In this document: positions 3,186-33,524 of the stretch, one piece after another
How positions within the stretch are numbered: the stretch's first letter is position 1
Layout: the number at the start of each line of letters is the position of its first letter
Source: a virus
Lineage: Duplodnaviria > Heunggongvirae > Uroviricota > Caudoviricetes
Virus record (IMG/VR): IMGVR_UViG_2529292882_000015
DNA length: 39,577 bases
Strand: one strand, 5' to 3'
Position numbers and translations under genes: made by a program
Notes under the pieces: model-generated
What the model was told of the DNA's origin: nothing
Database searches by the model: none
Seen by the model: the letters and a program-made list of their open reading frames with translations, nothing else

Positions 3186-5588
3186 TCACGCCCATGTCGC
3201 ATCTATGTAGAACGTTGGAGATGTAGTTGTGGACCCTTCAATCGATATTTGTCCTGTTGAAGCATTAATGGTGGCCATTGCCATGCCAAATGAAACGCCA
3301 TCAGCAGTGAACGGTACAGGGACATTTTTGGTTACTTTTGGCCTGCACCACCTCGGAAGCGTTAGAACAGTATTGCCATTCGCAAATGAAGTGGCTGCCA
3401 GTTTAATATTAATTGAATTGGCAGTTAAACTTGACGGTGCCTGTACTGTTACGTTTGTTCCAGCCCACCATTGAACAGCTGCTCTTGGCGTGTAATCAAC
3501 ACGCGACCACCAGTCGATAATGGCAGAGCAGATAATTTCCGCATACAGACGATACCCTAACTGGCTTTGGTGAATGTCATCACGCAGAAGTGGGTCGTAT
3601 TGCGTGTTGAAATATTCTGGATATGGGGCCGGGAGCTGGTGAGTTGTTGTTACACAAATGACGTTATTGCCATATTTCATCATCTGGCGTTTACCAGCTT
3701 CTCGCAACTCTGCGACACCGTCGTAGTTAGAAGATGGCTGGCCAGCCCCTCCAATAAATGACTGGCTATACCACATCCACGGCTCAACCCAAACAGGGAT
3801 ACGACCAAGGCCATTGCAATATAAGACAAACTCATCTATCAGTGCCGCCATATAATCGCCGTTTTGGTTTGCCTGCCCTTCGTTAGTTCCGGCAACCATA
3901 ATAACGATGTAAGCATCACCCGGCCCCTGAGCCTTCAGGAGATCTAACTGTTGCCTCATTGTCTGTCCGGCAACCGCCTTGTTTACAATGCTATATGAAC
4001 GGTGGCCGTTCGCTCCATCCATTAATTGCGGAATGTACGAGCTGAACGCTGAAATGAAATCCTCAGCTGTACTATCACCATGGATAAGGATATGAAGTGG
4101 AGGCTTACAGTGCACACCATTATCAGAGGTGTAGCTGCATAATCCAGTTACACGCGCAGCACCTCCAGATGCCGGGGTCATTGCAACGAACCCAACTTCG
4201 TATACATCCCCTACAGCAGAAGTATCAAATGGTAAGCGTATTCCAACGCCATTCATTGTTATCTGCGCCCAGTTTTTACCTTGCAGTGATACGCCAACGG
4301 TTGCTTTACCCGGGGCGTACGACAGTAAACCTCCTGGCAGCGGGAATGGAGTTCCTTCTGCTACTGGACCACCAATTGGTTTCTGTCTATAAGACCACTG
4401 TGTAGCACCTGGTGCCCCATAGAACATCATCCAACCACCAGAGCATCGCAGAACAATCCCAACTTCTGAGGCGGCCTGAGATTCCATACGAATATGTGCA
4501 GAAATATGCTCTCCAATATCTATTGGTGCGAACAGGCCTGTTGTACGGTCAGTAGTTAAGGGGAAGATAGCTGCGCTATCTGAGGATATGGTGACTTCAC
4601 CTTCATAGAAGAACGTGTCACCATTTATGGAATAAACTTTACAATCTGACCATTCCACTCGCTTCATGCGAATAGGGTTTCGGTTGAGTATGGCCTGCTT
4701 AGCCAGGTAATCCACTTCTCCACCGGTTGTTGTGAAATTAAGATGGGAAAACTCAAAAGTGCATTCACCTTCAAACTTCAGCGACTTATAAAGCGAGTAA
4801 AGATCGCTGTCGAATTTAAGAATGACGTTTTTATCAACGATTACACGGGAGTTTTGCAGATTTCCTGCCTGTGAGGCCGTTCCTGGTATTGTATAAGTTT
4901 TCTTTGTTGCAGAGTGGCAAGGGAAATAAACATAGCCATAGAGATTTACACTCTCCACCCATGCTGCAACAACGTTTGATTGATTGTAAGATGGCATAAC
5001 GGTGATTGGTATCGGCTCAAATTTATCCACGCCACCGATCTTTTTCCATCCGTCAGGCTGAGCAAGAAGAATCAGCACTTCACTGGCAGAAGCACTCGGA
5101 GGGAGAATGGCTATAGGCTGCCCACTGTCATCCCAGCCAAAAATCATATTCCGGCGACTTGATACCTTTGGCACCAGGTTTACACTGTTTTCAGGAACCC
5201 TAAGCGTATTTCTCTGAAGAGCACCGATGTTGAACATCGCATGCTGAATAAGCATGGTCAGGTAGTCGAATGCATCCTCATGGACCTCTGCAAAAAATTT
5301 CCCCTGATTTCTTAAATCAGTTTCCTGCACTGCTGGAAGGTTACGAGTGATTGATATTGTAATGCCTGGCAAAACAGGAGATGACGTAATAACGCTTCCA
5401 CCGGAAGATAAGCCAGCACCTGTAACCATGTAATCTGTCCCCAGGATCATTGGAGAAACAAGACCGTCAGCGGTTATTGTGCTTACATCAAGATCTGTGT
5501 CTTTAAAAATTCTGAAAGTATATGGGAATGATGTCGTGACTCCATTCCCGAGATACTCATTGTGGCTGATTTCGGTTGAGACTGTCAT
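3186..5588 (-). CDS. Tailspike/tail fiber with T7 gp17-like N-terminal adaptor domain and SGNH (GDSL) esterase domain
   Basis: N-terminus MTVSTEISHNEYLGNGVTTSFPYTFRIF resembles the conserved N-terminal domain of T7-type tail fibres; C-terminal third carries SGNH blocks (ILIHGDSTAEDF; VAGTNEG; DDIH); RBS GGAG 7 nt upstream. Confidence 0.8.
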   Translation of the reverse strand: MTVSTEISHNEYLGNGVTTSFPYTFRIFKDTDLDVSTITADGLVSPMILGTDYMVTGAGLSSGGSVITSSPVLPGITISITRNLPAVQETDLRNQGKFFAEVHEDAFDYLTMLIQHAMFNIGALQRNTLRVPENSVNLVPKVSSRRNMIFGWDDSGQPIAILPPSASASEVLILLAQPDGWKKIGGVDKFEPIPITVMPSYNQSNVVAAWVESVNLYGYVYFPCHSATKKTYTIPGTASQAGNLQNSRVIVDKNVILKFDSDLYSLYKSLKFEGECTFEFSHLNFTTTGGEVDYLAKQAILNRNPIRMKRVEWSDCKVYSINGDTFFYEGEVTISSDSAAIFPLTTDRTTGLFAPIDIGEHISAHIRMESQAASEVGIVLRCSGGWMMFYGAPGATQWSYRQKPIGGPVAEGTPFPLPGGLLSYAPGKATVGVSLQGKNWAQITMNGVGIRLPFDTSAVGDVYEVGFVAMTPASGGAARVTGLCSYTSDNGVHCKPPLHILIHGDSTAEDFISAFSSYIPQLMDGANGHRSYSIVNKAVAGQTMRQQLDLLKAQGPGDAYIVIMVAGTNEGQANQNGDYMAALIDEFVLYCNGLGRIPVWVEPWMWYSQSFIGGAGQPSSNYDGVAELREAGKRQMMKYGNNVICVTTTHQLPAPYPEYFNTQYDPLLRDDIHQSQLGYRLYAEIICSAIIDWWSRVDYTPRAAVQWWAGTNVTVQAPSSLTANSINIKLAATSFANGNTVLTLPRWCRPKVTKNVPVPFTADGVSFGMAMATINASTGQISIEGSTTTSPTFYIDATWA

Positions 5589-5692: not shown

Positions 5693-5707
5693 TTACCTTT
5701 CAGGTGA
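5693..5707. promoter_or_regulatory. Operator-like palindrome TTACC-N5-GGTGA (site 1 of 13)
   Basis: TTACCTTTCAGGTGA, in the divergent region between the tailspike start and the LexA-box promoter. Confidence 0.5.
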
Positions 5708-5744
5708 TTTGCAAAACGTGCTGGATAGCAAACAAATTATTTGA

Positions 5745-5764
5745 TACTGTATAAATATACAGTT
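5745..5764 (+). promoter_or_regulatory. LexA (SOS) box overlapping a promoter-like region
   Basis: TACTGTATAAATATACAGTT matches the consensus TACTGTATATATATACAGTA at 18 of 20 positions with the CTGT-N8-ACAG core; preceded by TTGATA (-35-like); 20 bp upstream of the ATG at 5784. Confidence 0.7.
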
Positions 5765-5783
5765 ATTGCATGGAGAAGATAAG

Positions 5784-6041
5784 ATGCAGCAGTATCACTA
5801 TCCACTGGAAGACGGATTTACCGAAAGGATTCACACGCCGGGAGGCGTCAGGTCACTGGTGGAGAGATCGCACTTGATGAAATTACTCCGGGATCTCGAT
5901 AAGGATGGATTTAATGTCGATGGCCCACTTGCCGAACTGACTGCACTGATTAACTACGTCACCAGCTCACAGATGTCTATGCAGGATCTGCAAACACATC
6001 TCGACTATTGTGCCGAACAATTACGAAAACAAACCAGATAA
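5784..6041 (+). CDS. Small SOS-regulated antirepressor-like protein (paralog of the antirepressor C-terminal domain)
   Basis: 85 aa from the ATG at 5784 with RBS GGAGAAG; clearly similar to the C-terminal ~70 aa of the downstream antirepressor (...LMKLLRDLDKDGFNVDGPLAELTALINY...DLQTHLDY vs ...LMNLLNRLQEDGHDVSGAAAELTTIFCY...DIQTHAEY). Confidence 0.6.
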   Translation: MQQYHYPLEDGFTERIHTPGGVRSLVERSHLMKLLRDLDKDGFNVDGPLAELTALINYVTSSQMSMQDLQTHLDYCAEQLRKQTR

Positions 6042-6072
6042 GGTTTGTAATTACCAAGTGGAGTGCTTATAT

Positions 6073-6087
6073 TTACCTTTGCGGTAA
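6073..6087. promoter_or_regulatory. Operator-like palindrome TTACC-N5-GGTAA (site 2 of 13)
   Basis: TTACCTTTGCGGTAA, in the intergenic region between the small antirepressor-like gene and ant. Confidence 0.5.
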
Positions 6088-6354
6088 ATTTACATCGCAC
6101 TCCTCTTGTGCCATAGTAGTCGGGCACTGGCAAAATCCAGTGCCGGGATTGGCGTCCCGGGTTACTACAGAGGCACATATGCCGCATAAGCGGTTTTTTT
6201 TATGTGTAAAGCGCACCTATTCTATGGTGGGCTGTGTGGGGGCACCGAAAGGTGCGCCGGGTCCTTTGTAGCCGGTTACGCCAACCCTGCACAGTTCACC
6301 ACCAACCGATTGGCGTCGGTAGTGGTGATTAACCTAACTACAAAGGTGATCACT

Positions 6355-7041
6355 ATGACTGCTAACGTAACCCCATCTGTTTTTCATTTTGAATCAGAAG
6401 CAACCATTCGAGCCATTGTTATTGATGGAAATCCTTGGTTTGTTGCCAAAGACGTTATTAAAGCTCTTCAACTGACAAACCCCACTATGTCAATAAAATC
6501 TCTTGATGATGATGAAAGGGCTAAATTTAACTTAGGCCGTCAAGGCGAAACCAATATTATCAACGAGTCAGGCCTCTACACACTGATCCTCCGCTGCCGC
6601 GATGCGGTGACACCAGGCACTATCCCCTACCGCTTTCGTAAATGGGTTACAGGTGAGGTTCTTCCTCAGATCCGCCGCACCGGAAGTTACATTAAAAACT
6701 CGCTCCCGCAGGAAGAACGCATAAAGATGGTTGCCGACCAGGTAGCCAACGCCACAGCATCAGCAGTGATGCAGGCAATGAAGATAGAGAACAAAACCTA
6801 CAGCGCCCCACTGAAGCCCGGCTACCGCAGTCTGATTCATTCTCCGTCTGGTGTTCTCGGCTTGACGGAGAACTCACTGCTGATGAATCTGCTGAACCGG
6901 TTACAGGAAGACGGGCACGACGTATCGGGCGCGGCGGCGGAGCTGACCACCATATTCTGCTACATCGTCGGTGTGAGCAAATGCCTGCGTGATATCCAGA
7001 CACACGCGGAGTACATCAACGACAAGGCAGGGTTCTTCTGA
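6355..7041 (+). CDS. ant: Antirepressor, Bro-N domain family
   Basis: Bro-N-like N-terminus (ATIRAIVIDGNPWFVAKDVIKALQLTNPTMSIKSLDDDERAK); RBS AAGGTGA upstream of the ATG at 6355; sits beside the tailspike gene as in P22 immI. Confidence 0.75.
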   Translation: MTANVTPSVFHFESEATIRAIVIDGNPWFVAKDVIKALQLTNPTMSIKSLDDDERAKFNLGRQGETNIINESGLYTLILRCRDAVTPGTIPYRFRKWVTGEVLPQIRRTGSYIKNSLPQEERIKMVADQVANATASAVMQAMKIENKTYSAPLKPGYRSLIHSPSGVLGLTENSLLMNLLNRLQEDGHDVSGAAAELTTIFCYIVGVSKCLRDIQTHAEYINDKAGFF

Positions 7042-7107
7042 CATGACGGCGGCACAGGGATGTGCCTTTAAATAATTCTGTACAGATTGCAGGTGAATAG
7101 CTTACTA

Positions 7108-7122
7108 TTACCTCACGGGTGA
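7108..7122. promoter_or_regulatory. Operator-like palindrome TTACC-N5-GGTGA (site 3 of 13)
   Basis: TTACCTCACGGGTGA, upstream of the leader mini-ORF and terminator that precede the 7252 gene. Confidence 0.5.
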
Positions 7123-22358: not shown

Positions 22359-22651
22359 TCCTGTTCACTGGCCTCTTTGGCCATCTTCAAATACTGTTCA
22401 GGGCAATGAGCCATAACGCGCTGAAACAGTTCCAGCGCCAGATTGCGTTGCCCCTCATTAAATGCCATTGCCATAGCGTCCATCGGTGAGATAGCGGAAA
22501 ACACACGGCCTTTCTCCAGCACCGACCAGACAACGCGACGCCCCTGTTCACTGCTCATGACAAAGCGAATGTCATCAATTTCACGCTTCGCCATGTCACG
22601 TTGCTTACGGGCGTTTTCTTCTTTCAGTTGATCGTCTTCGTAATCTGTCAT
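22355..22651 (-). CDS. Small protein of unknown function downstream of portal
   Basis: 98-aa charged ORF, translationally coupled to both neighbours. Confidence 0.45.
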   Translation of the reverse strand: MTDYEDDQLKEENARKQRDMAKREIDDIRFVMSSEQGRRVVWSVLEKGRVFSAISPMDAMAMAFNEGQRNLALELFQRVMAHCPEQYLKMAKEASEQE

Positions 22652-24327
22652 TGTGATTGCCCCCCCTGACCACTAACTGCATTCGCCATAGCTGACAAAA
22701 CACTCGGATCCGAAGTTTTAGCTTCGCTTAGCGTCTTGGCACCCTGTGCCGCCGCCATCGCCATCGCCATCATTTGTTGCTGCTGTTGCTGCTGTGCCCG
22801 TTGCTGGCGAGCCTGCTCAACCTGTTCCTGCGGAACAATGACGGTTGGAGACACTCCGGACATATCAGCAAATGCATCGATCGCCTGATCAACGTTGAGT
22901 TTGTCGATAGCTTCTGGTTTCGCTTTCGCAAGTTGACCAATGAAGTTAACCGTGGACGCCAGACTGGACAGGCCGATAGACTTCTGCGCCTGAGCCATGA
23001 CGGAAATGTATTCGACCTTCAGGGGCATGCCTTCCATCGCGTCAGGCGGTGGCGGCAGCATGTTTTTACGCACCATCATCGAGAAAGCGCGGTCAATGAG
23101 AGGATTAAGACATTCGTCGTTCAGACGCTCCAGAACCGGCCCCAACATCAGAAGTTTTTCTTCTTTCATTTCGATCACCGCTTCAACAGGCATCGAGCGG
23201 GTATTGATGTTCTGCAACATCATGAACAGATCGACAAAGTAGGCGCTGTTAATGATTTGACGAGTGTCCTGAATGTCTGCCACCAAATCTGCTGTACTGG
23301 GGTTAACCAGATAAGCAGGCCTGAAGCCATCCTGACCAGTAATCTGATCGATATACGTGATGTCGCCAGGAAGAAGGGAGGCGCGCTGATTCTTGAGGGA
23401 AGTCGGAGCAACCATCGGCGGATTGGTGGCTTTATCAATCAACTGCGACTTGCGCTTCTGGAGAAGCTGCAATGCCTTAACAGGTCCAAGCGCCAGCATA
23501 CCCGGGCATGATGATCCATAAACATCTTCGCCGTTAACTTCCCAGCGCGGAGCCATAATTGGAAACTCATCGAATCCTGACTCACGCAACAACTTGTCGT
23601 TATCGCCACCAACCTCGTAATAAACCGATTTGAATGGCTTGTTCTTGCTATCCAGCTTCGATGTATCGCGGTCAATGTTCGGGTAAACCGAATGCATCAC
23701 TTCAATCCACTTCTCGTAGGTACCGCTTTCCCACATGCTTTTTACGGATTCGCTGACGTTATTTAGCCCGAACTCCTGAACAAGCTGACGAACAGTCATA
23801 GAGAACTTGCGAAAACAGGTGTCCACACTGCCACGAGGTGAGTTAGCCAGGTAGTAACTGCCTATCGGGAATGGCATTGTGCGAATAATGTCCTCGTCAT
23901 CCTCCAGCACCGCCATTGCACCAGTGCTGTATGTGCCGAGGCTTCCGTATAACTGCGGCAGCGACTGATAGAGATTCGACTTATTGAACATATCGTTCAT
24001 GCGGTTCTGCACCGCCTCAAGCCACAACTTAACAGGGCCATAATCCATCATTTCAGGATCTGGCGTAGCCAGGCGAAACCACGGACGCGCGGGGCTTGTG
24101 ATGCCTGACATCATGCCGCTGGCGAGAGTGCGCGCCGCCATAGTCCCGGTCGAATCAATAATGCGTGTATTGCGTCGATCGTTACGGTTGACCTCAGAAG
24201 TCAGAAAGCGGGAACCACGTGGGTTGATGTAATCACTCAACTCGCGCCAGTGCGGCTCGAACGACTGACGCTCGCTTTCAAGTTGTGCGAACTGTTTGTT
24301 CAATCGCTCTTTAGTTGTTTCCGCCAT
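22648..24327 (-). CDS. Portal protein
   Basis: 559 aa, Gln-rich C-terminus, first large gene after terminase; RBS GGAG. Confidence 0.75.
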   Translation of the reverse strand: MAETTKERLNKQFAQLESERQSFEPHWRELSDYINPRGSRFLTSEVNRNDRRNTRIIDSTGTMAARTLASGMMSGITSPARPWFRLATPDPEMMDYGPVKLWLEAVQNRMNDMFNKSNLYQSLPQLYGSLGTYSTGAMAVLEDDEDIIRTMPFPIGSYYLANSPRGSVDTCFRKFSMTVRQLVQEFGLNNVSESVKSMWESGTYEKWIEVMHSVYPNIDRDTSKLDSKNKPFKSVYYEVGGDNDKLLRESGFDEFPIMAPRWEVNGEDVYGSSCPGMLALGPVKALQLLQKRKSQLIDKATNPPMVAPTSLKNQRASLLPGDITYIDQITGQDGFRPAYLVNPSTADLVADIQDTRQIINSAYFVDLFMMLQNINTRSMPVEAVIEMKEEKLLMLGPVLERLNDECLNPLIDRAFSMMVRKNMLPPPPDAMEGMPLKVEYISVMAQAQKSIGLSSLASTVNFIGQLAKAKPEAIDKLNVDQAIDAFADMSGVSPTVIVPQEQVEQARQQRAQQQQQQQMMAMAMAAAQGAKTLSEAKTSDPSVLSAMANAVSGQGGQSQ

Positions 24328-24341
24328 TTCAATGACTCCGG

Positions 24342-24548
24342 TTACTGACCAAGCAGCGTTTTACCGCTGGTATTAGCGGTTGATGTGTCGCCCTGAGAAC
24401 CGGTAAGCAGCGTAGAACTACGACCAGCAGCAGCGCGACGGCGACGTGTTTCTTCGTCGCGGGCATCAACAACGGCGGCATCCTGCTCCTGTGGTGCTGC
24501 CTGAACTTCTGGTGTTGCAGGCACTGATGGTGAGCTACCCATGCACAT
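24342..24548 (-). CDS. Small protein of unknown function upstream of portal
   Basis: 68 aa; its upstream region (GGAGTCATTGATATG) is nearly identical to the portal initiation region (GGAGTCATTGAAATG). Confidence 0.35.
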   Translation of the reverse strand: MCMGSSPSVPATPEVQAAPQEQDAAVVDARDEETRRRRAAAGRSSTLLTGSQGDTSTANTSGKTLLGQ

Positions 24549-24638
24549 ATCAATGACTCCGTACGCAATTAAATTATTACCAATTTAACCACATATGATT
24601 TATTTATCGTAGATGGTTGACATTTAACGCACAAATTA

Positions 24639-24653
24639 TTACCTTTCAGGTAA
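24639..24653. promoter_or_regulatory. Operator-like palindrome TTACC-N5-GGTAA (site 4 of 13), next to a TTGACA -35 element
   Basis: TTACCTTTCAGGTAA; TTGACA at 24617-24622 lies 16 bp upstream on the plus strand, in the divergent region between the portal operon and the tRNA unit. Confidence 0.5.
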
Positions 24654-24975
24654 CTAAAGAGTTCATTCCGGTTACTAACCTGACTGGCTTGTCGTTAAAT
24701 TGAACAGGTGGAGTGAGCTTTTATTTTGAGCAGTACGGCGTATGGCACATGCGCCGATAGCGGTCTGGATACGTTTAAGGGGCACCCTCCCTTGCTCGGG
24801 CAAACGAACCAGGTAGCCGGAATGTGCAAGTCGAGCGGTTTTATTCCGCGCACGGGGATTCACCATCCCGGCGATTCGGTGTGACGCCTCGGAAGAGACG
24901 AGGGTACAACGATGATAGCATTTATGGAGCCGCGACAAAGTGTGGCGCCTTAACAGGCTAAGTGCTCTCAGCGTT

Positions 24976-25052
24976 GTGGCATTAGCTCAGCTGGACAGAG
25001 CAACCGCCTTCTAAGCGGTTGGTCGCAGGTTCGAATCCTGCATGCCACGCCA
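24976..25052 (+). tRNA. tRNA-Arg, anticodon UCU (reads AGA)
   Basis: Cloverleaf folded by hand: acceptor GTGGCAT/ATGCCAC, D-arm GCTC-AGCTGGACA-GAGC, anticodon stem ACCGC/GCGGT with loop CTTCTAA, T-arm GCAGG-TTCGAAT-CCTGC, discriminator G and encoded CCA. Confidence 0.9.
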
Positions 25053-25095
25053 GAATCACGCCTAAGGACCGTGATGCCAGAAGCTCCAGGTGCTT

Positions 25096-25137
25096 GGCGG
25101 TGATGGTTTCCCTTGAAGGACTATCACCGCCCTTTTT
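25096..25137 (+). terminator. Hairpin with T-run downstream of the tRNA
   Basis: GGCGGTGAT ... ATCACCGCC (9-bp stem, 18-nt loop) followed by CTTTTT. Confidence 0.4.
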
Positions 25138-25167
25138 ACAGCAGGACGCCATTGCGATGACTTCATG

Positions 25168-25183
25168 CTGTAAACCAGTACAG
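25168..25183 (+). promoter_or_regulatory. Weak LexA-like box (CTGT-N8-ACAG) upstream of the moron gene
   Basis: CTGTAAACCAGTACAG has the right half-site spacing, but the centre is not AT-rich. Confidence 0.3.
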
Positions 25184-25249
25184 CCACGGAAGGCATAACT
25201 CATTGCTTCCAGTTCTCCCGGTTCGCCGGGCATTTTTTAAGGTGAGATT

Positions 25250-25606
25250 ATGAACGACCAGCAAATCGAAAAAGAAATCGTTGAGAAAGGCAAAACGGCA
25301 CCGCGAGTTACGCCTCAATATATCGAAAGCATCATTCTTGAAGAGCATTTCTTTACTGCTTATGACGGCATTCGTGCTGCCAATATGGGCGTTGGCGATT
25401 CATGGACAGCGCATAAATCTACAGACCTCCTGACTTTCTGCGTACTGGTGCTGAAGAATGGCTTCACCGTCACCGGAGAAAGCGCCTGTGCAAGTCCGGA
25501 AAATTTTGATGCAGAAATTGGTCGGAAGATTGCCCGGCAGAATGCTGTAAACAAAATCTGGATGCTCGAAGGTTACTTGCTGAAGCAGAAGTTAAGCGAG
25601 CAATAA
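25250..25606 (+). CDS. Conserved phage moron protein of unknown function
   Basis: 118 aa; RBS AGGTGAG preceded by hairpin CCCGG-TTCG-CCGGG plus T-run; plus strand between TerL and portal; motif VTGESACASPENFDAEIGRKIA. Confidence 0.6.
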   Translation: MNDQQIEKEIVEKGKTAPRVTPQYIESIILEEHFFTAYDGIRAANMGVGDSWTAHKSTDLLTFCVLVLKNGFTVTGESACASPENFDAEIGRKIARQNAVNKIWMLEGYLLKQKLSEQ

Positions 25607-25610
25607 CACC

Positions 25611-25622
25611 GTGACATGTCAC
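25611..25622. repeat. 12-bp perfect palindrome GTGACATGTCAC (copy 2 of 3)
   Basis: Exact palindrome 4 nt after the moron stop codon and 4 nt before the terminator hairpin. Confidence 0.7.
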
Positions 25623-25623
25623 A

Positions 25624-25653
25624 AACAGCCAGCCTATGAGCTGGCTTTGTTTT
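25624..25653. terminator. Bidirectional rho-independent terminator between the moron gene and the TerL 3' end
   Basis: AGCCAGC-CTATGA-GCTGGCT flanked by ACAAAC upstream and TTTGTTTT downstream. Confidence 0.55.
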
Positions 25654-25696
25654 ATCCTCACCAGAGGATATCAGCAGTATTATCCCCACCAGCGGA

Positions 25697-27172
25697 TTAA
25701 GCATAAGGGTCATAATCCGTTATGGCCCTTCCCTGCTGGCTTTGCTGTCCTGGTATATTTATGCGTTTCGAGACCGGGAAAGCAAACGTCAGCAATAGCG
25801 CATCGCCTTTCCCCGGCGAACGCCCAAGTCGATCCTTGATATCTTCCTTCGGTTCGATAACGATTTTACCGTCCACGCGAACTTTGTACTCTGCCGTCGA
25901 CAGGTCGTCCGCTGTTTCCTGGTCATCCAGCATGCCGCCGAGCCTCAGCCATGTCTTGCATGAGTTGAACATCTCCCCACGCTTGTTGAGCATCTGCGGG
26001 TCAGTAGACGCGCCACCGAACGGAACAAGTTGCCATGTACGACCCCAGCCGTCACCGATTGACTTCAGACCAGTTCCGTAACCGAAGTCGATGAACACTG
26101 CGTCAGCCTGATACTGGTCTTCAAAGTCAGCGATACGCTTCGCCATAATCAGATCGTCGGTAGTCTTGTTGCCAGTCCACAGCACCTTACTGTGTAGCCC
26201 CTGCCGCAGGTATATCACCGCGTCATCAACGCCTGAATATGCCGGGTCAACACCGATTATCACCGGAGCATGCGCCACCTGCGCAGCGGTTACCACCCGT
26301 TTCATTGCCTCATCAGTAAGACCGGTAGGGATAAACTGCAATTCAGATGCATCAGGGAATATGCCGCGCACACGGATTTTAACGAAGTCGCTGTCTTCCC
26401 CGTAGTCATCAACCCATTTCTGCAACTGCTGTTTGTTAGTGCCTTCCACCGTTCGGCTGTCAATCTGCGCAGTTTTCCAGCGGTGTTTATATTTGCGGAA
26501 ACATTCGCGAAAACGCCCGGTGTTACGTGTAGGGTTTCCGAACGCCACCCAGATAATCTCAGTGTCTTCGTCCGTTAGCGCACCCTCGGCAACTTCCCAC
26601 ACCAGATCCGCAATGTTCGACGCTTCATCAAACACCACGATGATGCGTTTGCGCTCGTTGTGTAGTCCGGCGAATGCCTCAGTGTTGTGCTCAGACCAGG
26701 GGATTGCGTCAGCTCGCCACCGCTTGTCGTGCCCAGGATCATTGCTGTACATCGCGGTAGCGGTACAGGTAAACCAGTCTTTCGTGATAGCAAGGTTCGA
26801 CCACTTGATAATTTCCGGCCAGGTCTTCGTTCGTAGCTGGTTGTCGGTGTTGGCGGTCACCACGACCTTACAATCCTCGCAAGTGGACATGCCCCAGTTG
26901 ATCAGCATTGAGATGAATGCGGATTTACCAATACCGTGACCAGAAGCGCGTGCCAGCATAAGCGGCTGATAGCGCGTCTCTGGATTCTGCAGGTGATCAC
27001 GTATCTCTCGGAACGCATCAGCCTGCCACTGACGTGGGCCGGTAGCATGTGCCAGTTCAGTCCCCTCTTCCCCCCACGGGAACGCATAGAGGGCATAGCC
27101 AAGCGGATCGTGAGTGAACCCTGCAATATCCTCGATCAACTGCTCTTCAGGAGATAACGCTGTATCTTTCAC
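25697..27172 (-). CDS. Terminase large subunit
   Basis: 491 aa with Walker A-like ARASGHGIGKS and a nuclease-type C-terminal region; GTG start overlaps the TerS stop (GTGA). Confidence 0.85.
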   Translation of the reverse strand: MKDTALSPEEQLIEDIAGFTHDPLGYALYAFPWGEEGTELAHATGPRQWQADAFREIRDHLQNPETRYQPLMLARASGHGIGKSAFISMLINWGMSTCEDCKVVVTANTDNQLRTKTWPEIIKWSNLAITKDWFTCTATAMYSNDPGHDKRWRADAIPWSEHNTEAFAGLHNERKRIIVVFDEASNIADLVWEVAEGALTDEDTEIIWVAFGNPTRNTGRFRECFRKYKHRWKTAQIDSRTVEGTNKQQLQKWVDDYGEDSDFVKIRVRGIFPDASELQFIPTGLTDEAMKRVVTAAQVAHAPVIIGVDPAYSGVDDAVIYLRQGLHSKVLWTGNKTTDDLIMAKRIADFEDQYQADAVFIDFGYGTGLKSIGDGWGRTWQLVPFGGASTDPQMLNKRGEMFNSCKTWLRLGGMLDDQETADDLSTAEYKVRVDGKIVIEPKEDIKDRLGRSPGKGDALLLTFAFPVSKRINIPGQQSQQGRAITDYDPYA

Positions 27173-27765
27173 TGATTACCATCCTGACGTTCTTTGAGTC
27201 GCTTCCTGGCTGCTGCTATGCGATCAGCAATTGTCACATTCACATTAACATCCAGACGTTCTTTGAACGCGTTGACATCAACATGCTTACCAATCAGCTC
27301 AAGGTTCTTCACCTTGTCAGGCCATTTAATTTTTTTGAGGATTGTCTCTATCGAATCCTCGTTCATGTTCATGATGGTCGATGACAGATCAAAGCCACTA
27401 AGCGTAGTGCGCCAGATTTTCGGCCACTCACGGATTGGTTTAAGGCTCCCATCGTCGTTGAGGATGTCGATCACGTCCATCTGGTCGATCTCCACCAGGC
27501 GCATGAGAACGTAATCAGCACTGACGCGCATTCGTTTGTTGCGCTCCTCCATCAACTCGGCAATCCGTTTTTGAATGCGTTCATCGCGCATCATGACACT
27601 GGCTTTAACTGCCGCTGTATTTGGGGAGAATCCTGCATTAATCGCTGCCTGAGTCTGGTTTTCAGGCGTTTTGATGTATGACTGGCAATAAGCCTCCTGC
27701 ATTGCTGTTAGTGGCTTAAATTGCGTTGATTTGCGTTTATAGGTTTTAGGTTCAGCAGGCATCAT
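27169..27765 (-). CDS. Terminase small subunit
   Basis: DNA-binding N-terminal region (LTAMQEAYCQSYIKTPENQTQAAINAGFSPNTAAVKASVMMRDERIQKRIAEL) typical of small terminases; start placed at ATG 27765 (MMPAEPK); directly upstream of TerL. Confidence 0.75.
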   Translation of the reverse strand: MMPAEPKTYKRKSTQFKPLTAMQEAYCQSYIKTPENQTQAAINAGFSPNTAAVKASVMMRDERIQKRIAELMEERNKRMRVSADYVLMRLVEIDQMDVIDILNDDGSLKPIREWPKIWRTTLSGFDLSSTIMNMNEDSIETILKKIKWPDKVKNLELIGKHVDVNAFKERLDVNVNVTIADRIAAARKRLKERQDGNQ

Positions 27766-27782
27766 AACCACCGTGGTAATAG

Positions 27783-27797
27783 TTACCGTTGTGGTAA
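27783..27797. promoter_or_regulatory. Operator-like palindrome TTACC-N5-GGTAA (site 5 of 13), overlapping direct repeats upstream of TerS
   Basis: TTACCGTTGTGGTAA; overlaps two ACTATTACCAC direct repeats (minus-strand reading) about 20 bp upstream of the TerS start. Confidence 0.5.
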
Positions 27798-27807
27798 TAG
27801 TAACATG

Positions 27808-27834
27808 CAAAATAAAGCCGCCATAGTTGGCGGC
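27808..27834 (-). terminator. Rho-independent terminator between the early-right operon and TerS
   Basis: Minus strand GCCGCCA-ACTA-TGGCGGC followed by TTTATTTTG, about 40 bp upstream of the TerS start. Confidence 0.5.
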
Positions 27835-27875
27835 AGTATTCAAAGTCCATCAAATTCATCATGCACAATCTACTC

Positions 27876-27887
27876 GTGACATGTCAC
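27876..27887. repeat. 12-bp perfect palindrome GTGACATGTCAC (copy 3 of 3)
   Basis: Exact palindrome; the TGA stop of minus-strand gene 27884-28222 lies within it in the same register as at copy 1. Confidence 0.7.
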
Positions 27888-28222
27888 ACTATTAATTTCG
27901 TTTCATGCCAGCCTTTAGTCACCCAGCATTGCGAGTCACCATTACACGGGCATGAATTAACTGGAACTCTCTCGCCGCACTTACCGCAACATTTTCTGCT
28001 GATCGATTTTATACGCCCGCGCACGCGTGCATCATCCTGCCGGATCAGTAACGCTATATACTCACCAAATTCGTAAGGCGCACGCCCGGGGCGACGCGCG
28101 GCACAGTTACGCTCAAGCATTTCAATTTCCTGAGCATCAAGCACAATCTCCAGCTTACGCACACCAGATGCAGCTTGTCTGGCTCTCTGAGCGGCTTTGC
28201 GCTCTGCTGCTGATTTAGCCAT
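27884..28222 (-). CDS. Cys-rich putative zinc-binding protein, candidate late-gene regulator
   Basis: 112 aa, basic N-terminus, C-terminal Cys cluster (CCGKCGERVPVNSCPCNGDSQC); last early-right gene before the terminator and TerS. Confidence 0.45.
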   Translation of the reverse strand: MAKSAAERKAAQRARQAASGVRKLEIVLDAQEIEMLERNCAARRPGRAPYEFGEYIALLIRQDDARVRGRIKSISRKCCGKCGERVPVNSCPCNGDSQCWVTKGWHETKLIV

Positions 28223-28496
28223 TGATATTCACCTTTATCGCGAACACCTTTACCGGTTTATCGCCGAAGTGCGGATGTGTGATTGTCTTGATTTCATATC
28301 CGTCATACGGAACATCAATTCTACGGCTGGAATCGTCGCGCTTCGGATATCCCTTTGTGATAATCAGGCGGTCATATTCCCGGAACATGATTCGCTTATT
28401 CCAGTAGTCATTACACAGGCGATACTCTTCCGTTTTCTCTCCGCGAGTCATGGCATCGAAGTATTCACCTTTAACGGCAAGTTGAAGGTTAGCCAC
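28215..28496 (-). CDS. Small protein, possible ASCH/PUA-like fold
   Basis: 93 aa; N-terminal pattern LQLAVKGEYFDAMTRGEKTEEYR resembles ASCH-type domains (by memory, unverified). Confidence 0.45.
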   Translation of the reverse strand: MANLQLAVKGEYFDAMTRGEKTEEYRLCNDYWNKRIMFREYDRLIITKGYPKRDDSSRRIDVPYDGYEIKTITHPHFGDKPVKVFAIKVNING

Positions 28497-28857
28497 GGTT
28501 AACCCCCTGCGGCGGTTCGGGTAACGCTTCCAGTGACGCTTTTACAAACCACGCGGCCTGAACTATTACGCCATGAATCCAGCGCAAATCAGCATCGCGA
28601 TCTTTCTTTTTCATCTTTTCGCCACTTAAAGCCTGGCTTATGTGGCTGCGAACCAGGTTTTCATGTAATTCCTTCGCATCCTCAATGGTGAAACCACCAG
28701 GCAGGCGAGCCGGAGTTACCGGAGAGTTGCCAGCCTTACGCATGGCCATTTCCACGATTTCAACCATATCTCCTGGTGGAATTTTACAAAGTTGCCCAAT
28801 ACATTTCTGCTGCCTGGCATATTCGAGAATGTGCTCCAGTTTGGTTCGATTAATCAT
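28489..28857 (-). CDS. Hypothetical protein (nin-like region)
   Basis: 122-aa ORF with overlapping start/stop to its neighbours. Confidence 0.45.
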   Translation of the reverse strand: MINRTKLEHILEYARQQKCIGQLCKIPPGDMVEIVEMAMRKAGNSPVTPARLPGGFTIEDAKELHENLVRSHISQALSGEKMKKKDRDADLRWIHGVIVQAAWFVKASLEALPEPPQGVNRG

Positions 28858-29360
28858 TATTTATCTCCCTTAAGCATGGCGGCGCGGCAGGCGTTCCAGC
28901 CACCTCGGAAAGTGTCATCAAAAGAGTCATCTTCCATGAACCGACGCTTGTACTCTTCGCGGGTTAGCTCATCAGGCACAGATACCGGTGCTGGCTGCCA
29001 CATTCCTGCCAACACGGTTTCAATCTGGTCAAACACAGCCTGCATGTCAGAAACATCAGTTATGACAGCGGGCGTGAAGATGTGGCGCATGGTGGCGTCA
29101 CCTATCTTGTAGAATTCCGGCGCTGGCGGTGCGGTGTAGAGCGAGCCAGGCTTGATATCATGACGACGCATACGGATATCACAGGTTCGCTCTTCGTTTG
29201 GCGAAGACCATGCGACAACATCAGCCACAGCCTCCGCTTCGAGCGATGCCAGCGCGATACGCGCCAACTCGTTCAGGATTGCCACATCAGCGTGACCGAG
29301 GGTGTAACCAGCTTTCAAATCGGCAACTGCTTGGACGGCATGTTTGTCGATGTTGCTCAT
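28857..29360 (-). CDS. Hypothetical protein (nin-like region)
   Basis: 167-aa ORF, translationally coupled. Confidence 0.45.
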   Translation of the reverse strand: MSNIDKHAVQAVADLKAGYTLGHADVAILNELARIALASLEAEAVADVVAWSSPNEERTCDIRMRRHDIKPGSLYTAPPAPEFYKIGDATMRHIFTPAVITDVSDMQAVFDQIETVLAGMWQPAPVSVPDELTREEYKRRFMEDDSFDDTFRGGWNACRAAMLKGDK

Positions 29361-29542
29361 TGGAACCTCACATGATTCTTCCAGCGATTCTGTGCTGCGC
29401 TGTTTTTGAATTGATGCCCTTCACGGCTAACACCACCGAGCGTGAAGAGAACCATGCGTCGATTGCTTACATTCAGCCATTGGCGCGGGTAGCAGTTTTT
29501 CAGAGCGCGAAGAACGATGATTTTGGCTTTACGGTTTTTCAT
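29357..29542 (-). CDS. Small basic hypothetical protein
   Basis: 61-aa ORF with ATGA overlaps on both sides. Confidence 0.35.
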   Translation of the reverse strand: MKNRKAKIIVLRALKNCYPRQWLNVSNRRMVLFTLGGVSREGHQFKNSAAQNRWKNHVRFQ

Positions 29543-29976
29543 GACTGTACTCCTTTGCGAAGCTGGGCGGCGAAGTCATTGAGCTCGTCGAATACGTATC
29601 CGCTACCCCAGCGCTCTGATGCAGCATGTTCAATAGCACTGGCCCGTACTTCAGCCAGGAAAGCATCGGTGGCAGGGGTATTTTCCATTAGTCGTTTTGA
29701 CGTTGACCAAAGCGCGGAAAGCCACTCTTTATCAAACCATTTATCCTTATGGTGAAACATTTCATCAACTGTCTGGTGGCAGCGGGATATCTCAAAAAGG
29801 CACCGCGCATTCTCCGCCGCCAGCGCATTAGCACGCGCCAGTTGCACTTCCAGTTGCGTTGCCAAATCGCTGATCAGCTTTGCCACACTACGCATATCAA
29901 CGGCACCACATTCTGCTTTCAGTTCCGAAGCCATCTCATGCCCGGCGGTAACTAACCCTTTGATATTACTTTCCAT
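29539..29976 (-). CDS. Hypothetical protein (nin-like region)
   Basis: 145-aa helical ORF. Confidence 0.45.
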   Translation of the reverse strand: MESNIKGLVTAGHEMASELKAECGAVDMRSVAKLISDLATQLEVQLARANALAAENARCLFEISRCHQTVDEMFHHKDKWFDKEWLSALWSTSKRLMENTPATDAFLAEVRASAIEHAASERWGSGYVFDELNDFAAQLRKGVQS

Positions 29977-30037
29977 CTTTACCCTCGCTTATCCACATAA
30001 CTTATTGATTACATTGATAACTAAAAAGATCGTCGAT

Positions 30038-30382
30038 TCAGAACTCTTCGATTTTCCAGCCACCACCTGCTTTCTTTGGCTTAACAGTTACCCCGATGAT
30101 TCGGAACGGATATTGATCTGCGGCGACTTTGGTTTTCACCCTGGCGTCGTCGGTCCAGAAACCTTTCACTTCGTGCAGTTCCATCTCTCCGGTGGCGAGC
30201 ATCACAGCGAAATCTGGCGTATAGAACGTGTTATCAGCTAACCGCAGCTTGATACCCTCGAATCGATACCAGGCGATTTCCCCTGCACGTTTACGCAGCT
30301 CAAGGTGCTGGCAATACGCAGATTCTGTTTTGTTCATCTGGCCTGTTTTGAGTCGACCAAGAGCCTGTATCTGTTTTCTCAT
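30038..30382 (-). CDS. Putative PD-(D/E)XK nuclease-fold protein
   Basis: 114 aa with a D...E-x-K arrangement (YTPDFAVML ... GEMELHEVKG) consistent with a restriction-endonuclease-like fold. Confidence 0.45.
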   Translation of the reverse strand: MRKQIQALGRLKTGQMNKTESAYCQHLELRKRAGEIAWYRFEGIKLRLADNTFYTPDFAVMLATGEMELHEVKGFWTDDARVKTKVAADQYPFRIIGVTVKPKKAGGGWKIEEF

Positions 30383-30385
30383 GAT

Positions 30386-30400
30386 TTACCCCTGAGGTAA
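30386..30400. promoter_or_regulatory. Operator-like palindrome TTACC-N5-GGTAA (site 6 of 13)
   Basis: TTACCCCTGAGGTAA, immediately upstream of and overlapping the RBS region of the 30382 gene. Confidence 0.5.
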
Positions 30401-30447
30401 TTAAAAACCACATAAGACACGAAATCAATAGATTTTAGAATATTTTA

Positions 30448-30462
30448 TTACCCAACAGGTAA
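30448..30462. promoter_or_regulatory. Operator-like palindrome TTACC-N5-GGTAA (site 7 of 13)
   Basis: TTACCCAACAGGTAA, in the intergenic region after the P-like gene. Confidence 0.5.
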
Positions 30463-30499
30463 TTATCAAGACGTAAAAAAATGCGCTATCGCGCTGGTA

Positions 30500-31285
30500 T
30501 TACTTGATAAATCCTGCTGCCTTTCCTCGCCTGTATTCCTCCATCAGCCACTGCGCCGGCGTTATTCCCCCCAGGGTGGCGGCGTTAGGCATGCACCCGA
30601 AACTTCGCCCTGGTGGATGGTAAACGTCTCTCCCTGTGTCCGGAGGCGTACTCATTGGTTCTGGCTTTGCCTGTATGCTGATCACCGGATCGGGTATCTG
30701 CTGTCCGGAAGCCACCTTTTTCGCCCAATCATCGAGCAGCCTGCGCGCGTGTTTCTCAACCTCAATCTCGCTAAGCTGGCGCTGATACATTGCACGGCGG
30801 GTATCACATACGACCCAGTACATAACCGGATGTCGCCACGGGAATCTTTCGGGACCACCAGGATATAAACTTTTTTCCTTGCTGTACCGGTGAAACTCCG
30901 CCATCACATCGTCAATGGTGACGCCAAGAACCATCTTGCTGTCTTTACACCACTTGATGAATTGCCCTGGCGACGGCCAGAACGGAGATTCACTGGCGCG
31001 GGCGTGGCGCATACCAGCAGAAACCTGTTCACGGGTTCGGATCCCCCCTTCGGCAAACGCAGCAATCCACTGCTGTTTTGCAGCAACTTCCTGCTCTGGC
31101 GTCTTCAGGTTGGTTACCACTGCCGCCGGAAACAGTTGTTTCAGCTGTTTGAAAAGGGCATCAACAAGCCTCTCTGCTGACATGTTCACCACGTTGTCAT
31201 TGTTGGTGTACTGATGCTCATAACCTGACATGCGAGAAAGGGCTTCTCCGTCACGGTTTTGTATCGCGGTAAAAACGTTGTTCAC
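30500..31285 (-). CDS. Replication protein P-like (helicase loader)
   Basis: Clear similarity to lambda P by memory (WIAAFAEGGIRTREQVSAGMRHARASESPFWPSPGQFIKWC vs lambda WVLAFRENGITTMEQVNAGMRVARRQNRPFLPSPGQFVAWC). Start placed at GTG 31285 (RBS GGAGG, overlaps the O-like stop); the in-frame ATG at 31300 is the alternative. Confidence 0.8.
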   Translation of the reverse strand: MNNVFTAIQNRDGEALSRMSGYEHQYTNNDNVVNMSAERLVDALFKQLKQLFPAAVVTNLKTPEQEVAAKQQWIAAFAEGGIRTREQVSAGMRHARASESPFWPSPGQFIKWCKDSKMVLGVTIDDVMAEFHRYSKEKSLYPGGPERFPWRHPVMYWVVCDTRRAMYQRQLSEIEVEKHARRLLDDWAKKVASGQQIPDPVISIQAKPEPMSTPPDTGRDVYHPPGRSFGCMPNAATLGGITPAQWLMEEYRRGKAAGFIK

Positions 31286-32730: not shown

Positions 32731-32745
32731 TCACCCATAAGGTAA
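32731..32745. promoter_or_regulatory. OR-type operator site (site 9 of 13)
   Basis: TCACCCATAAGGTAA; overlaps the spacer of the minus-strand TTGTTA-N17-TATTAT promoter for the cro-like gene. Confidence 0.55.
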
Positions 32746-32761
32746 CAAAAATCAAGGATAG

Positions 32762-32776
32762 TTACCTATGGGGTGC
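32762..32776. promoter_or_regulatory. OR-type operator site (site 10 of 13)
   Basis: TTACCTATGGGGTGC. Confidence 0.55.
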
Positions 32777-32778
32777 AT

Positions 32779-32793
32779 TTACCTGTTGGGTAA
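32779..32793. promoter_or_regulatory. OR-type operator site (site 11 of 13)
   Basis: TTACCTGTTGGGTAA; the three OR sites have centre-to-centre spacings of 31 and 17 bp. Confidence 0.55.
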
Positions 32794-33490: not shown

Positions 33491-33505
33491 TTACCTAACG
33501 GGTAA
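33491..33505. promoter_or_regulatory. OL-type operator site (site 12 of 13)
   Basis: TTACCTAACGGGTAA, upstream of the pL-like -35. Confidence 0.55.
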
Positions 33506-33524
33506 TTTTTTTAACTCATATCTA

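Follow-up and report, generated by a model that had tools for sequence, protein, structure and literature searches.

A predicted family of structured leader RNAs with a slot for tRNA or tRNA-like cargos in temperate enterobacterial phages

The DNA considered here, referred to as the window, is the 39,577-nucleotide (nt) tailed-phage record IMGVR_UViG_2529292882_000015 of IMG/VR, which is a phiV10/epsilon15-like temperate podophage of Escherichia coli, genus Uetakevirus. Its positions 24617-25653 form an accessory transcription unit on the plus strand (Table 1). Over this interval, identity to phiV10, vB_EcoP_ZX5 and the O157 typing phages 9 and 10 is 90-97%, with identical gene order. The unit begins with a TTGACA promoter and an overlapping operator, followed by roughly 70 nt of RNA with little conservation, a conserved structured RNA of 255 nt (a core and a stem, P6), a transfer RNA (tRNA) gene for tRNA-Arg(UCU), a hairpin, the terminator T1, a conserved 76-nt leader, the terminator T2, an Acb4-family gene and a bidirectional terminator. 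Phages are known to carry cargo of the tRNA and Acb4-family kinds. The leader RNA is no such known kind, and it is the main subject of this report.

Table 1. Features of the accessory unit and its flanking genes, in window coordinates (paired strands of a stem are separated by a slash)
Feature	Position	Strand	Evidence or remark
-35 hexamer TTGACA	24617-24622	+	read from sequence; site conserved in Uetakevirus relatives
Predicted repressor operator ATTACCTTTCAGGTAAC	24638-24654	both	overlaps putative -10 TACCTT, 24640-24645
5' transcript segment, poorly conserved	24655-24721	+	128-sequence alignment; weak hairpin 24668-24687
Conserved RNA core, about 175 nt	24722-24911	+	covariance model R1, 148.3 bits, E = 6.8e-45
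Stem P1, CGGCGUAUG-GCA-CAUGCGCCG	24736-24744/24748-24756	+	
Stem P2 base, variable interior	24765-24768/24809-24812	+	
Near-invariant 19-mer GGTAGCCGGAATGTGCAAG	24812-24830	+	
Variable hairpin	24831-24854	+	
H-type pseudoknot S1, GGGA/UCCC	24855-24858/24866-24869	+	
H-type pseudoknot S2, CACC/GGUG	24861-24864/24878-24881	+	5' strand within S1 loop
Stem P5, CCUCG-GAAGAGA-CGAGG	24887-24891/24899-24903	+	
Stem P6, CAACG..GAUAGCA/UGCUCUC..CGUUG	24907-24976	+	variable tip 24921-24962; last base is tRNA G1
tRNA-Arg(UCU), CCA encoded	24976-25052	+	ARAGORN tRNA-Arg(tct); Rfam RF00005; occupies the stem-closed cargo slot
Conserved hairpin ATCACG-N9-CGTGAT	25055-25075	+	present behind tRNA and non-tRNA cargos in relatives
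Intrinsic terminator T1, 14-bp stem then CTTTTT	25096-25140 (hairpin 25096-25131)	+	conserved in relatives
Conserved Acb4-gene leader, invariant ACGCCATTGCGATGAC	25141-25216	+	alignment of relatives
Terminator/attenuator T2, CCCGGTTCGCCGGG and T run	25217-25238 (hairpin 25217-25230)	+	abuts ribosome-binding site AAGGTGA
Acb4-family gene, 118 aa, putative cyclic-dinucleotide sponge	25250-25606	+	PF13876 (Phage_gp49_66)
Bidirectional terminator, common to the converging terminase operon	25627-25653 (hairpin 25627-25646)	both	phiV10 rho-independent terminator annotated here
Terminase small subunit	27169-27843	-	PF03592
Terminase large subunit	25697-27172	-	
gp3-like gene, 68 aa	24342-24548	-	
Portal	22648-24327	-	PF12236

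A first, sequence-only reading of the window had described a long GC-rich leader, possibly a structured RNA, as part of a tRNA unit. The leader turns out to be only mildly GC-rich (53-56%, against 49.6% for the window), and its conserved part is restricted to 24722-24978, the first segment of the transcript (24655-24721) not being conserved. Nor is it a private feature of the tRNA: on comparative evidence, 24722-24978 belongs to a large and widespread RNA family of temperate enterobacterial phages, most members of which have no tRNA. Positions 24735-24975 are about 82% identical to unannotated DNA of the lambdoid phages mEp460, cdtI, 2H10 and Ayreon and of phages converting for Shiga toxin (Stx) 2c and 2a, and identity is 67-75% in Uetakeviruses of Klebsiella, Enterobacter and Salmonella. 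The family is present in 1840 of 5426 complete E. coli genomes, and 554 of its places are on plasmids, those inspected being P1-like. Scanning with the 19-mer of the core retrieved at least 120 IMG/VR contigs and 24 species-representative genomes, nearly all of them from Enterobacteriaceae (the exceptions are two contigs of metagenome-assembled genomes of doubtful origin), with Kosakonia, Citrobacter, Klebsiella, Kluyvera, Buttiauxella and Phytobacter among the positive genera, to which Candidatus Erwinia dacicola is to be added. A scan anchored on another segment of the element retrieved at least 120 metagenome contigs, and more than 200 distinct versions of the element were collected in total.

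The element is unannotated in every record inspected. An Rfam 15 search over 24500-25720 at E <= 10 returned the tRNA only and gave no match to the leader, and the core and cargo went unmatched in 14 other loci at gathering thresholds and in surveyed loci L005 and L010 at E <= 5. The Rfam matches that did occur in the window and the surveyed loci were tRNA, C4, isrK and int-alpA, all of them outside the element. GOLLD, ROOL, EAR, T-box, riboswitches, ribozymes, YrlA and other families were accordingly rejected for want of a covariance-model match. Neither the exact sequence of the element nor a description of it was found in the literature on the phiV10 tRNA, prophage noncoding RNA, antiterminator RNAs, mEp460 and cdtI, P1 ban, and yfdP or small RNAs, where subscription literature was partly covered, so that an earlier description is possible. 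The Pas small RNAs are a different thing, as they adjoin structural genes. The family is apparently undescribed.

That the leader is a structured RNA, as had been suspected, is borne out by comparison of its homologues. In a first set of 48 sequences with less than 95% mutual identity, 95.8% of the cells were paired, and 12 of the 26 pairs carried compensatory changes (109 cells); the observed value was reached in 0 of 500 shuffles, and slid controls were 26-52% paired. A separately retrieved metagenome set (100 hits, 77 distinct) gave 97.0% paired cells and 13 compensatory pairs in 198 cells. S2 of the pseudoknot lies outside the covariance model and yet was 100% paired in the metagenome set, where 12 sequences have A-U in place of C-G. 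Since only the plus strand tolerates the G-U pairs, it is the strand of the functional RNA. The single-sequence fold of the leader is not significant (z = -1.13); the structural case is a comparative one. The 19-mer was exact in 107 of 117 usable homologues retrieved with a different anchor, and an invariant AGCGGUC stands between stems P1 and P2. RNAalifold found AUGUGC within the 19-mer (24822-24827) to be complementary to GCACAU at the apex of stem P1 (24745-24750), both sides being invariant, and this pairing could be a second pseudoknot. With model R1, the window and the complete mEp460 genome each yield a single copy. A protein-coding leader was rejected, because frames are open across the core in at most 38% of the 209 variants and the G-U covariation is strand-specific.

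Stem P6 is predicted by the single-sequence fold as well, and its strands change together among homologues (GAGAGCA/UGCUCUC, AAGAGCA/UGCUCUU and GAGCGCA/UGCGCUC). It ends in GUUGUGG, which opens a further stem that is closed 70-290 nt downstream, and the slot enclosed in this way holds the tRNA in the window. Sixty distinct inserts were found in the slot. They include the 73-nt tRNA-Arg(UCU), RNAs with canonical D and T arms and large insertions, a 115-nt insert of Stx2c/cdtI-type phages, and RNAs in which a D-like loop AGGCUGAU is complementary to a 9-nt T-like loop AGAUCAGCA, both stems showing compensatory changes and 94.5% pairing. The insert of locus L045 carries an anticodon-like loop, CUUUUAA, that resembles the one of tRNA-Lys. 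The 3' slot of the family holds a tRNA or a predicted tRNA-like RNA. tRNA-like slot RNAs at L005 (3237-3371), L045, L114, L196, L231, L233 and other loci go unrecognised by ARAGORN or Rfam. In some loci the unit of P5-like hairpin, P6 and cargo is repeated in tandem, and some members have neither P6 nor cargo and run straight into an open reading frame (ORF), as in P1 ban and at L099. tRNA-Arg(UCU) stands directly 3' of the element in 31 of 159 loci and the P1 tRNA-Ile2 directly 5' in 19 of 159, always on the same strand.

The tRNA itself had been recognised from the sequence as a complete plus-strand tRNA-Arg(UCU) and as phage cargo inserted against the packaging and head genes, and both points hold. 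ARAGORN calls it as the single tRNA of the whole window, and it scores 71.7 bits with the Rfam tRNA model, for which the gathering score is 29. It is a distinct phage gene, since the closest chromosomal tRNA-Arg of E. coli is only 84.5% identical over positions 7-77, and it is found in the complete phage genomes of phiV10 and ZX5, between the terminase large subunit and gp3/portal. Copies with at least 95% identity occur in about 500 records, presumably prophages, and several GenBank relatives already have it annotated. Among 38 loci, nine near-identical variants differ by changes at single positions only. A megablast search with the interval also matched 64 Synechococcus phage records, a match that we presume to concern the tRNA-Arg portion.

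The suggestion that this tRNA compensates for codon usage receives weak support. AGA and AGG are used 5.96 and 5.46 times per 1000 codons in the window, against about 2 and 1 per 1000 in E. coli K-12, and AGA is concentrated in the tail and injection genes and some early genes. AGA is absent, however, from capsid, scaffold, portal, both terminase subunits and the 118-aa gene. A modest supply of codons by the phage tRNA is plausible, and a role against tRNA-targeting defences is possible.

The proposed promoter, a TTGACA element with an operator-like palindrome in the -10 position, is likewise corroborated, and the palindrome proves to be the phage's repeated operator motif. TACCTT lies 17 bases past TTGACA, inside ATTACCTTTCAGGTAAC. 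The window contains the motif TTACC-N5-GGTAA 12 times (0.68 expected), a count reached in 0 of 100 shuffles, and its copies form clusters at 5693-7122, 24639, 27765-27797, 30386-30462, 32731-32793 and 33491-33567, several of them in inter-operon regions; the 11 other copies are spread over five or more further regions, at 5693, 6073, 7108, 27765, 27783, 30386, 30448, 32731, 32779, 33491 and 33553. This sequence scan thus predicts a phage repressor operator of the repeated-palindrome type, and the dispersal of the sites suggests a regulon like that of the P1 C1 repressor. Because the motif is so enriched, and because the homologous site is annotated as a repressor site in the epsilon15 record, the cassette promoter is very probably repressor-controlled, off in the lysogen and on early after infection or induction.

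One operator pair sits at the start of the small-terminase gene. The segment 24549-24616, AT-rich (30% GC) and very conserved, lies upstream of the minus-strand gp3-portal genes and contains a candidate divergent promoter on the minus strand (TTGTGC-17-TACGAT) that would share its operator with the cassette promoter. Rfam also identified isrK at 6124-6200 (74.7 bits) and the C4 antisense RNA at 6220-6306 (79.5 bits), adjoining a 279-aa ORF (6202-7041) and flanked by operator motifs at 5693, 6073 and 7108. The region 6124-6306 looks like a P1/P22-style antirepressor control region, and C4 and isrK are present in lambdoid carriers of the leader RNA as well.

Behind the tRNA, hairpins had been noticed without being identified; they are present, and those at 25096-25131, 25217-25230 and 25627-25646 are GC-rich hairpins followed by U runs, that is, intrinsic terminators. 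The T2 stem covaries among relatives (CCCGG/CCGGG versus CCCAC/GUGGG), and its position against the ribosome-binding site agrees with the earlier description of a gene with its own hairpin-plus-binding-site leader. High conservation of the 76 nt that separate T1 from T2 extends to every Uetakevirus relative, even those without the core and the tRNA; the segment contains a GGAAG...CUUCC hairpin. The CTGT-N8-ACAG element that had been noted is there in the window, but since its right half is lost in epsilon15, PAT1 and SPN1S it is treated as chance, and a LexA (SOS) box was rejected on the same ground. The phiV10 (p04) and ZX5 records annotate a hypothetical minus-strand coding sequence at 24982-25233, antisense to the tRNA and T1, and a second minus-strand ORF (24675-24938) covers part of the RNA core; each is probably a spurious prediction over noncoding RNA.

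The 118-aa gene, previously taken for a co-located accessory (moron) gene, is indeed one, and profile searches add its identity. Its product matches Pfam PF13876 with E = 1.7e-34 (118.6 bits, cut-off 27) and, weakly, the solved 'anti-CBASS 4' (Acb4) chain of phage SPO1, PDB 9e4w (E = 0.006 over 43 residues). Acb4 is a tetrameric sponge for the cyclic dinucleotides of CBASS and the founder of PF13876 (Chang et al., PMC11722364). The gene is thus a predicted new member of the Acb4 anti-CBASS sponge family by its membership of PF13876 and its similarity to the SPO1 chain; its identity to SPO1 Acb4 is very low, and sponge activity is predicted from sequence only. In the same slot, the Klebsiella phage ST512-KPC3phi13.3 (L008, 2697-3218) has a 173-aa Tad2-like (anti-Thoeris) gene of PF11195, whose product matches Tad2 chains in the PDB at 1e-13 to 1e-16, and epsilon15 again has PF13876. 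Because Acb4-family genes and a Tad2-like gene alternate in this way, the cassette appears to be a counter-defence slot under an early promoter in which counter-defence genes are exchanged.

The setting of the element in other phages bears on its function. It always lies on the sense strand of operons that look early. For P1 and epsilon15, repressor control of these operons is stated in the record annotation; for the lambdoid phages it is deduced from promoter and operator sequence. Lambdoid carriers have the order cI, terminator, TTGACA promoter with palindromic operator, element, terminator and yfdP-yfdQ-yfdR, with about 780 nt of noncoding sequence before yfdP, and from this gene order the element occupies the nutL/putL position. 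The lambdoid carriers inspected have no annotated N gene. The downstream proteins YfdP, YfdQ/DUF2303 and a ParB-like helix-turn-helix protein are uncharacterised and give no functional hint. In phage P1 (L284, AF234172) the core lies between trnI and ban, at about 3510-3700 of the locus, and is unannotated among the 535 features of the record; the operon driven by the C1-controlled promoter Pban (Op72) comprises, in this order, a dicF-like region, tRNA-Asn, tRNA-Thr, tciABC, trnI, the element and ban. Across the family, a terminator-like site was found on the same strand at +90 to +800 in 136 of 198 unique elements versus 25 of 196 control windows, and a consensus promoter within 220 nt upstream in 62 of 203 elements versus 13 of 193 controls. 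In epsilon15 (L004, about 2330-2400, compared with L010 and L011), a deletion between a copy of TTCCCTTGATGCT in the P2 loop and another in the T1 loop has removed the remainder of the core together with P6, the tRNA and the 5' half of T1; in the window, UCCCUUG is common to these two loops.

Given this setting, we tentatively propose, as the leading explanation, that the core may act in cis, as a leader that enables RNA polymerase to traverse the long untranslated region together with its terminators, a reading that we regard as possible rather than probable. Folding during transcription would turn the core into a compact domain, possibly with two pseudoknots, and the core would act on the polymerase that made it, with the invariant 19-mer and the neighbouring invariant loops contacting RNA polymerase or an elongation factor. 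Elongation would then become resistant to Rho over about 600 untranslated bases, as well as to T1 and T2, and a single derepressed promoter would provide the tRNA as well as the counter-defence gene at an early stage of infection. The tRNA would be cut out by RNase P and 3' processing and would serve to decode AGA in the tail, injection and early genes, which are richer in this codon. We count in favour of such a role the location of T1 and T2 between the core and the Acb4-family gene, and the fact that the epsilon15 deletion took both the core and the 5' half of T1. Action in cis is favoured because some members abut a ribosome-binding site directly, without a defined 3' end. There is precedent in the put RNAs, which act alone on RNA polymerase (PMC9378689), and RNA-mediated antitermination has been suspected in lambdoid phages that lack N (PMC12315714).

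Several points weigh against this proposal. The argument for a function in cis is one of position. Both the window and mEp460 have a single copy of the core per genome, whereas put and nut are found in each of the two early operons. The core, unrelated to put, exceeds it 2.5-fold in size, and R1 found no match in HK022 at 23000-31000, the region fetched to cover the early operons. The strict sigma-70 promoter scan did not call the cassette promoter. Full read-through of the last terminator here would yield RNA antisense to the terminase genes, and antitermination leaves the conserved slot for tRNA-like cargo unaccounted for. In addition, epsilon15 retains T2 and an intact Acb4-family gene without the core. 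A boxA-like sequence behind the core in 4 of 209 members is at chance level, and a mechanism through boxA and Nus factors was rejected, as UGCUCUU is the 3' strand of P6 and changes with its partner strand.

The main rival explanation is that the core and P6 are themselves the product, an early RNA acting in trans, although we find this doubtful as well. The cargo would then be an entry site for RNase P, cutting between GUU and GUGG of the junction, and the cut would leave a discrete RNA, about 250-330 nt long, with P6 shielding its 3' end, in the way that mascRNA sets the 3' end of MALAT1. Once released, this RNA would bind or sequester a conserved host or defence factor. The GUUGUGG junction is conserved. 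An acceptor-like stem, D- and T-like arms and the complementarity of the D- and T-loops are retained among the cargos, whereas their middle varies freely and their length lies between 70 and 290 nt; if RNase P recognises the tRNA elbow, conservation of the elbow features alone would be accounted for. RNase P also processes the C4 RNA precursor of phages P1 and P7. The invariant single-stranded stretches suggest a conserved partner, the P1 tRNA abuts the 5' end of the core, terminators stand behind the cargo, and the neighbouring genes belong to the counter-defence families Acb4 and Tad2. However, the P1-type members and several others run into an ORF with neither cargo nor terminator, and such members would have no defined 3' end.

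Less probable still, and on balance unlikely, is that the core and P6 serve as a chassis that expresses, folds, processes or protects the tRNA or tRNA-like RNA in the slot. The role of effector would then fall to the cargos, which might for instance replace the substrates of anticodon nucleases and of other defences that target tRNA, or act as decoys for them, and phage tRNAs do counter tRNA-cleaving defences. The frequency of tRNA-Arg(UCU) in the slot, the tRNA-like RNAs in other slots (the CUUUUAA loop of L045 among them), the tandem P5-like/P6/cargo units and the counter-defence genes borne by the cassette would all suit a chassis. It is difficult to reconcile with the core that lacks any cargo in P1 and in the members running directly into an ORF; moreover, bacterial tRNAs need no such leader, and the analysis identified no defence that targets tRNA-Arg(UCU).

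A compact, highly conserved pseudoknot fold in a 5' leader upstream of terminators is also what a riboswitch-like sensor would look like, one in which the core binds a small molecule or an ion and sets read-through of the downstream terminator. We consider this improbable, because P6 and 70-290 nt of cargo separate the core from the terminator so that there is no adjacent expression platform, Rfam gave no riboswitch match, and the downstream genes, being unrelated to each other, suggest no common ligand. Finally, that the unit is an ordinary tRNA moron, with a tRNA that tops up AGA decoding behind a spacer of chance hairpins or a leader encoding small minus-strand ORFs, might be argued from an AGA frequency about three times the E. 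coli average, from hypothetical ORFs annotated over the element in some records (e.g. mEp460_037) and from the non-significant single-sequence fold, but is very improbable in view of a leader conserved across unrelated phage types and usually without a tRNA, G-U pairs that work on the plus strand only, the absence of a frame open in more than 38% of the variants, the lack of AGA in the most highly expressed late genes, the presence of the family in about a third of the E. coli genomes and covariation in both sequence sets.

With low confidence, we suggest that the core represents a new class of phage RNA, either a put-like reprogrammer of the elongation complex or the chassis of an RNA counter-defence with exchangeable tRNA or tRNA-mimic cargos. 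The leader RNA is present in about a third of complete E. coli genomes, Stx-converting prophages included, and in the model phage P1. Many of the carrier phages have no known early antitermination device, and the element sits where lambda has nut and HK022 has put. If put-like, the core could explain how the early operons run in many N-less lambdoid phages, in P1 and in the phiV10-like phages, and if it acts on RNA polymerase it would offer a testable answer to the question of early-left gene expression in N-less lambdoid phages. If it is a trans-acting RNA or a chassis for cargos, it would add an RNA component to phage counter-defence cassettes.

Among known systems, lambda nut shares the map position of the element at the start of the leftward early operon of lambdoid genomes, yet no N gene is annotated in the carriers and boxA is at chance level, so the element does not qualify as a nut site. 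In its proposed role, and by analogy only, the core resembles EAR, the eps-associated RNA of Bacillales, a pseudoknotted RNA of about 120 nt that lies within an operon and promotes processive read-through of distal terminators. The intra-operon position of EAR makes the placement of the element before ban in P1 less odd, although EAR belongs to another phylum, differs in sequence and fold, and has no Rfam match to the leader. Close in proposed role, too, is put of HK022, which likewise is a strongly conserved phage RNA just past a repressor-controlled early promoter of lambdoid phages without N, and which acts, as the core is proposed to act, on RNA polymerase without a phage protein (PMC9378689). 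However, put consists of about 70 nt in two stem-loops without a pseudoknot and occurs twice per genome, whereas the core has about 175 nt and an H-type pseudoknot and occurs once, and it cannot be classed as a put RNA. GOLLD and ROOL gave no Rfam match in the window or the other loci scanned and differ from the leader family in being 500-800 nt or more in length and found mainly outside Enterobacteriaceae, while the leader family is small and located in early-operon leaders. They too are structured phage or prophage RNAs near tRNA genes, and GOLLD sometimes carries tRNAs within a variable linker (PMC12286853), an arrangement comparable to the tRNA or tRNA-like RNA in the slot described here. 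Whether it acts in cis or as an RNA component of counter-defence, the leader RNA would be a compact enterobacterial relative in kind of the unexplained, tRNA-linked GOLLD and ROOL RNAs, and one that resides in genetically tractable organisms.

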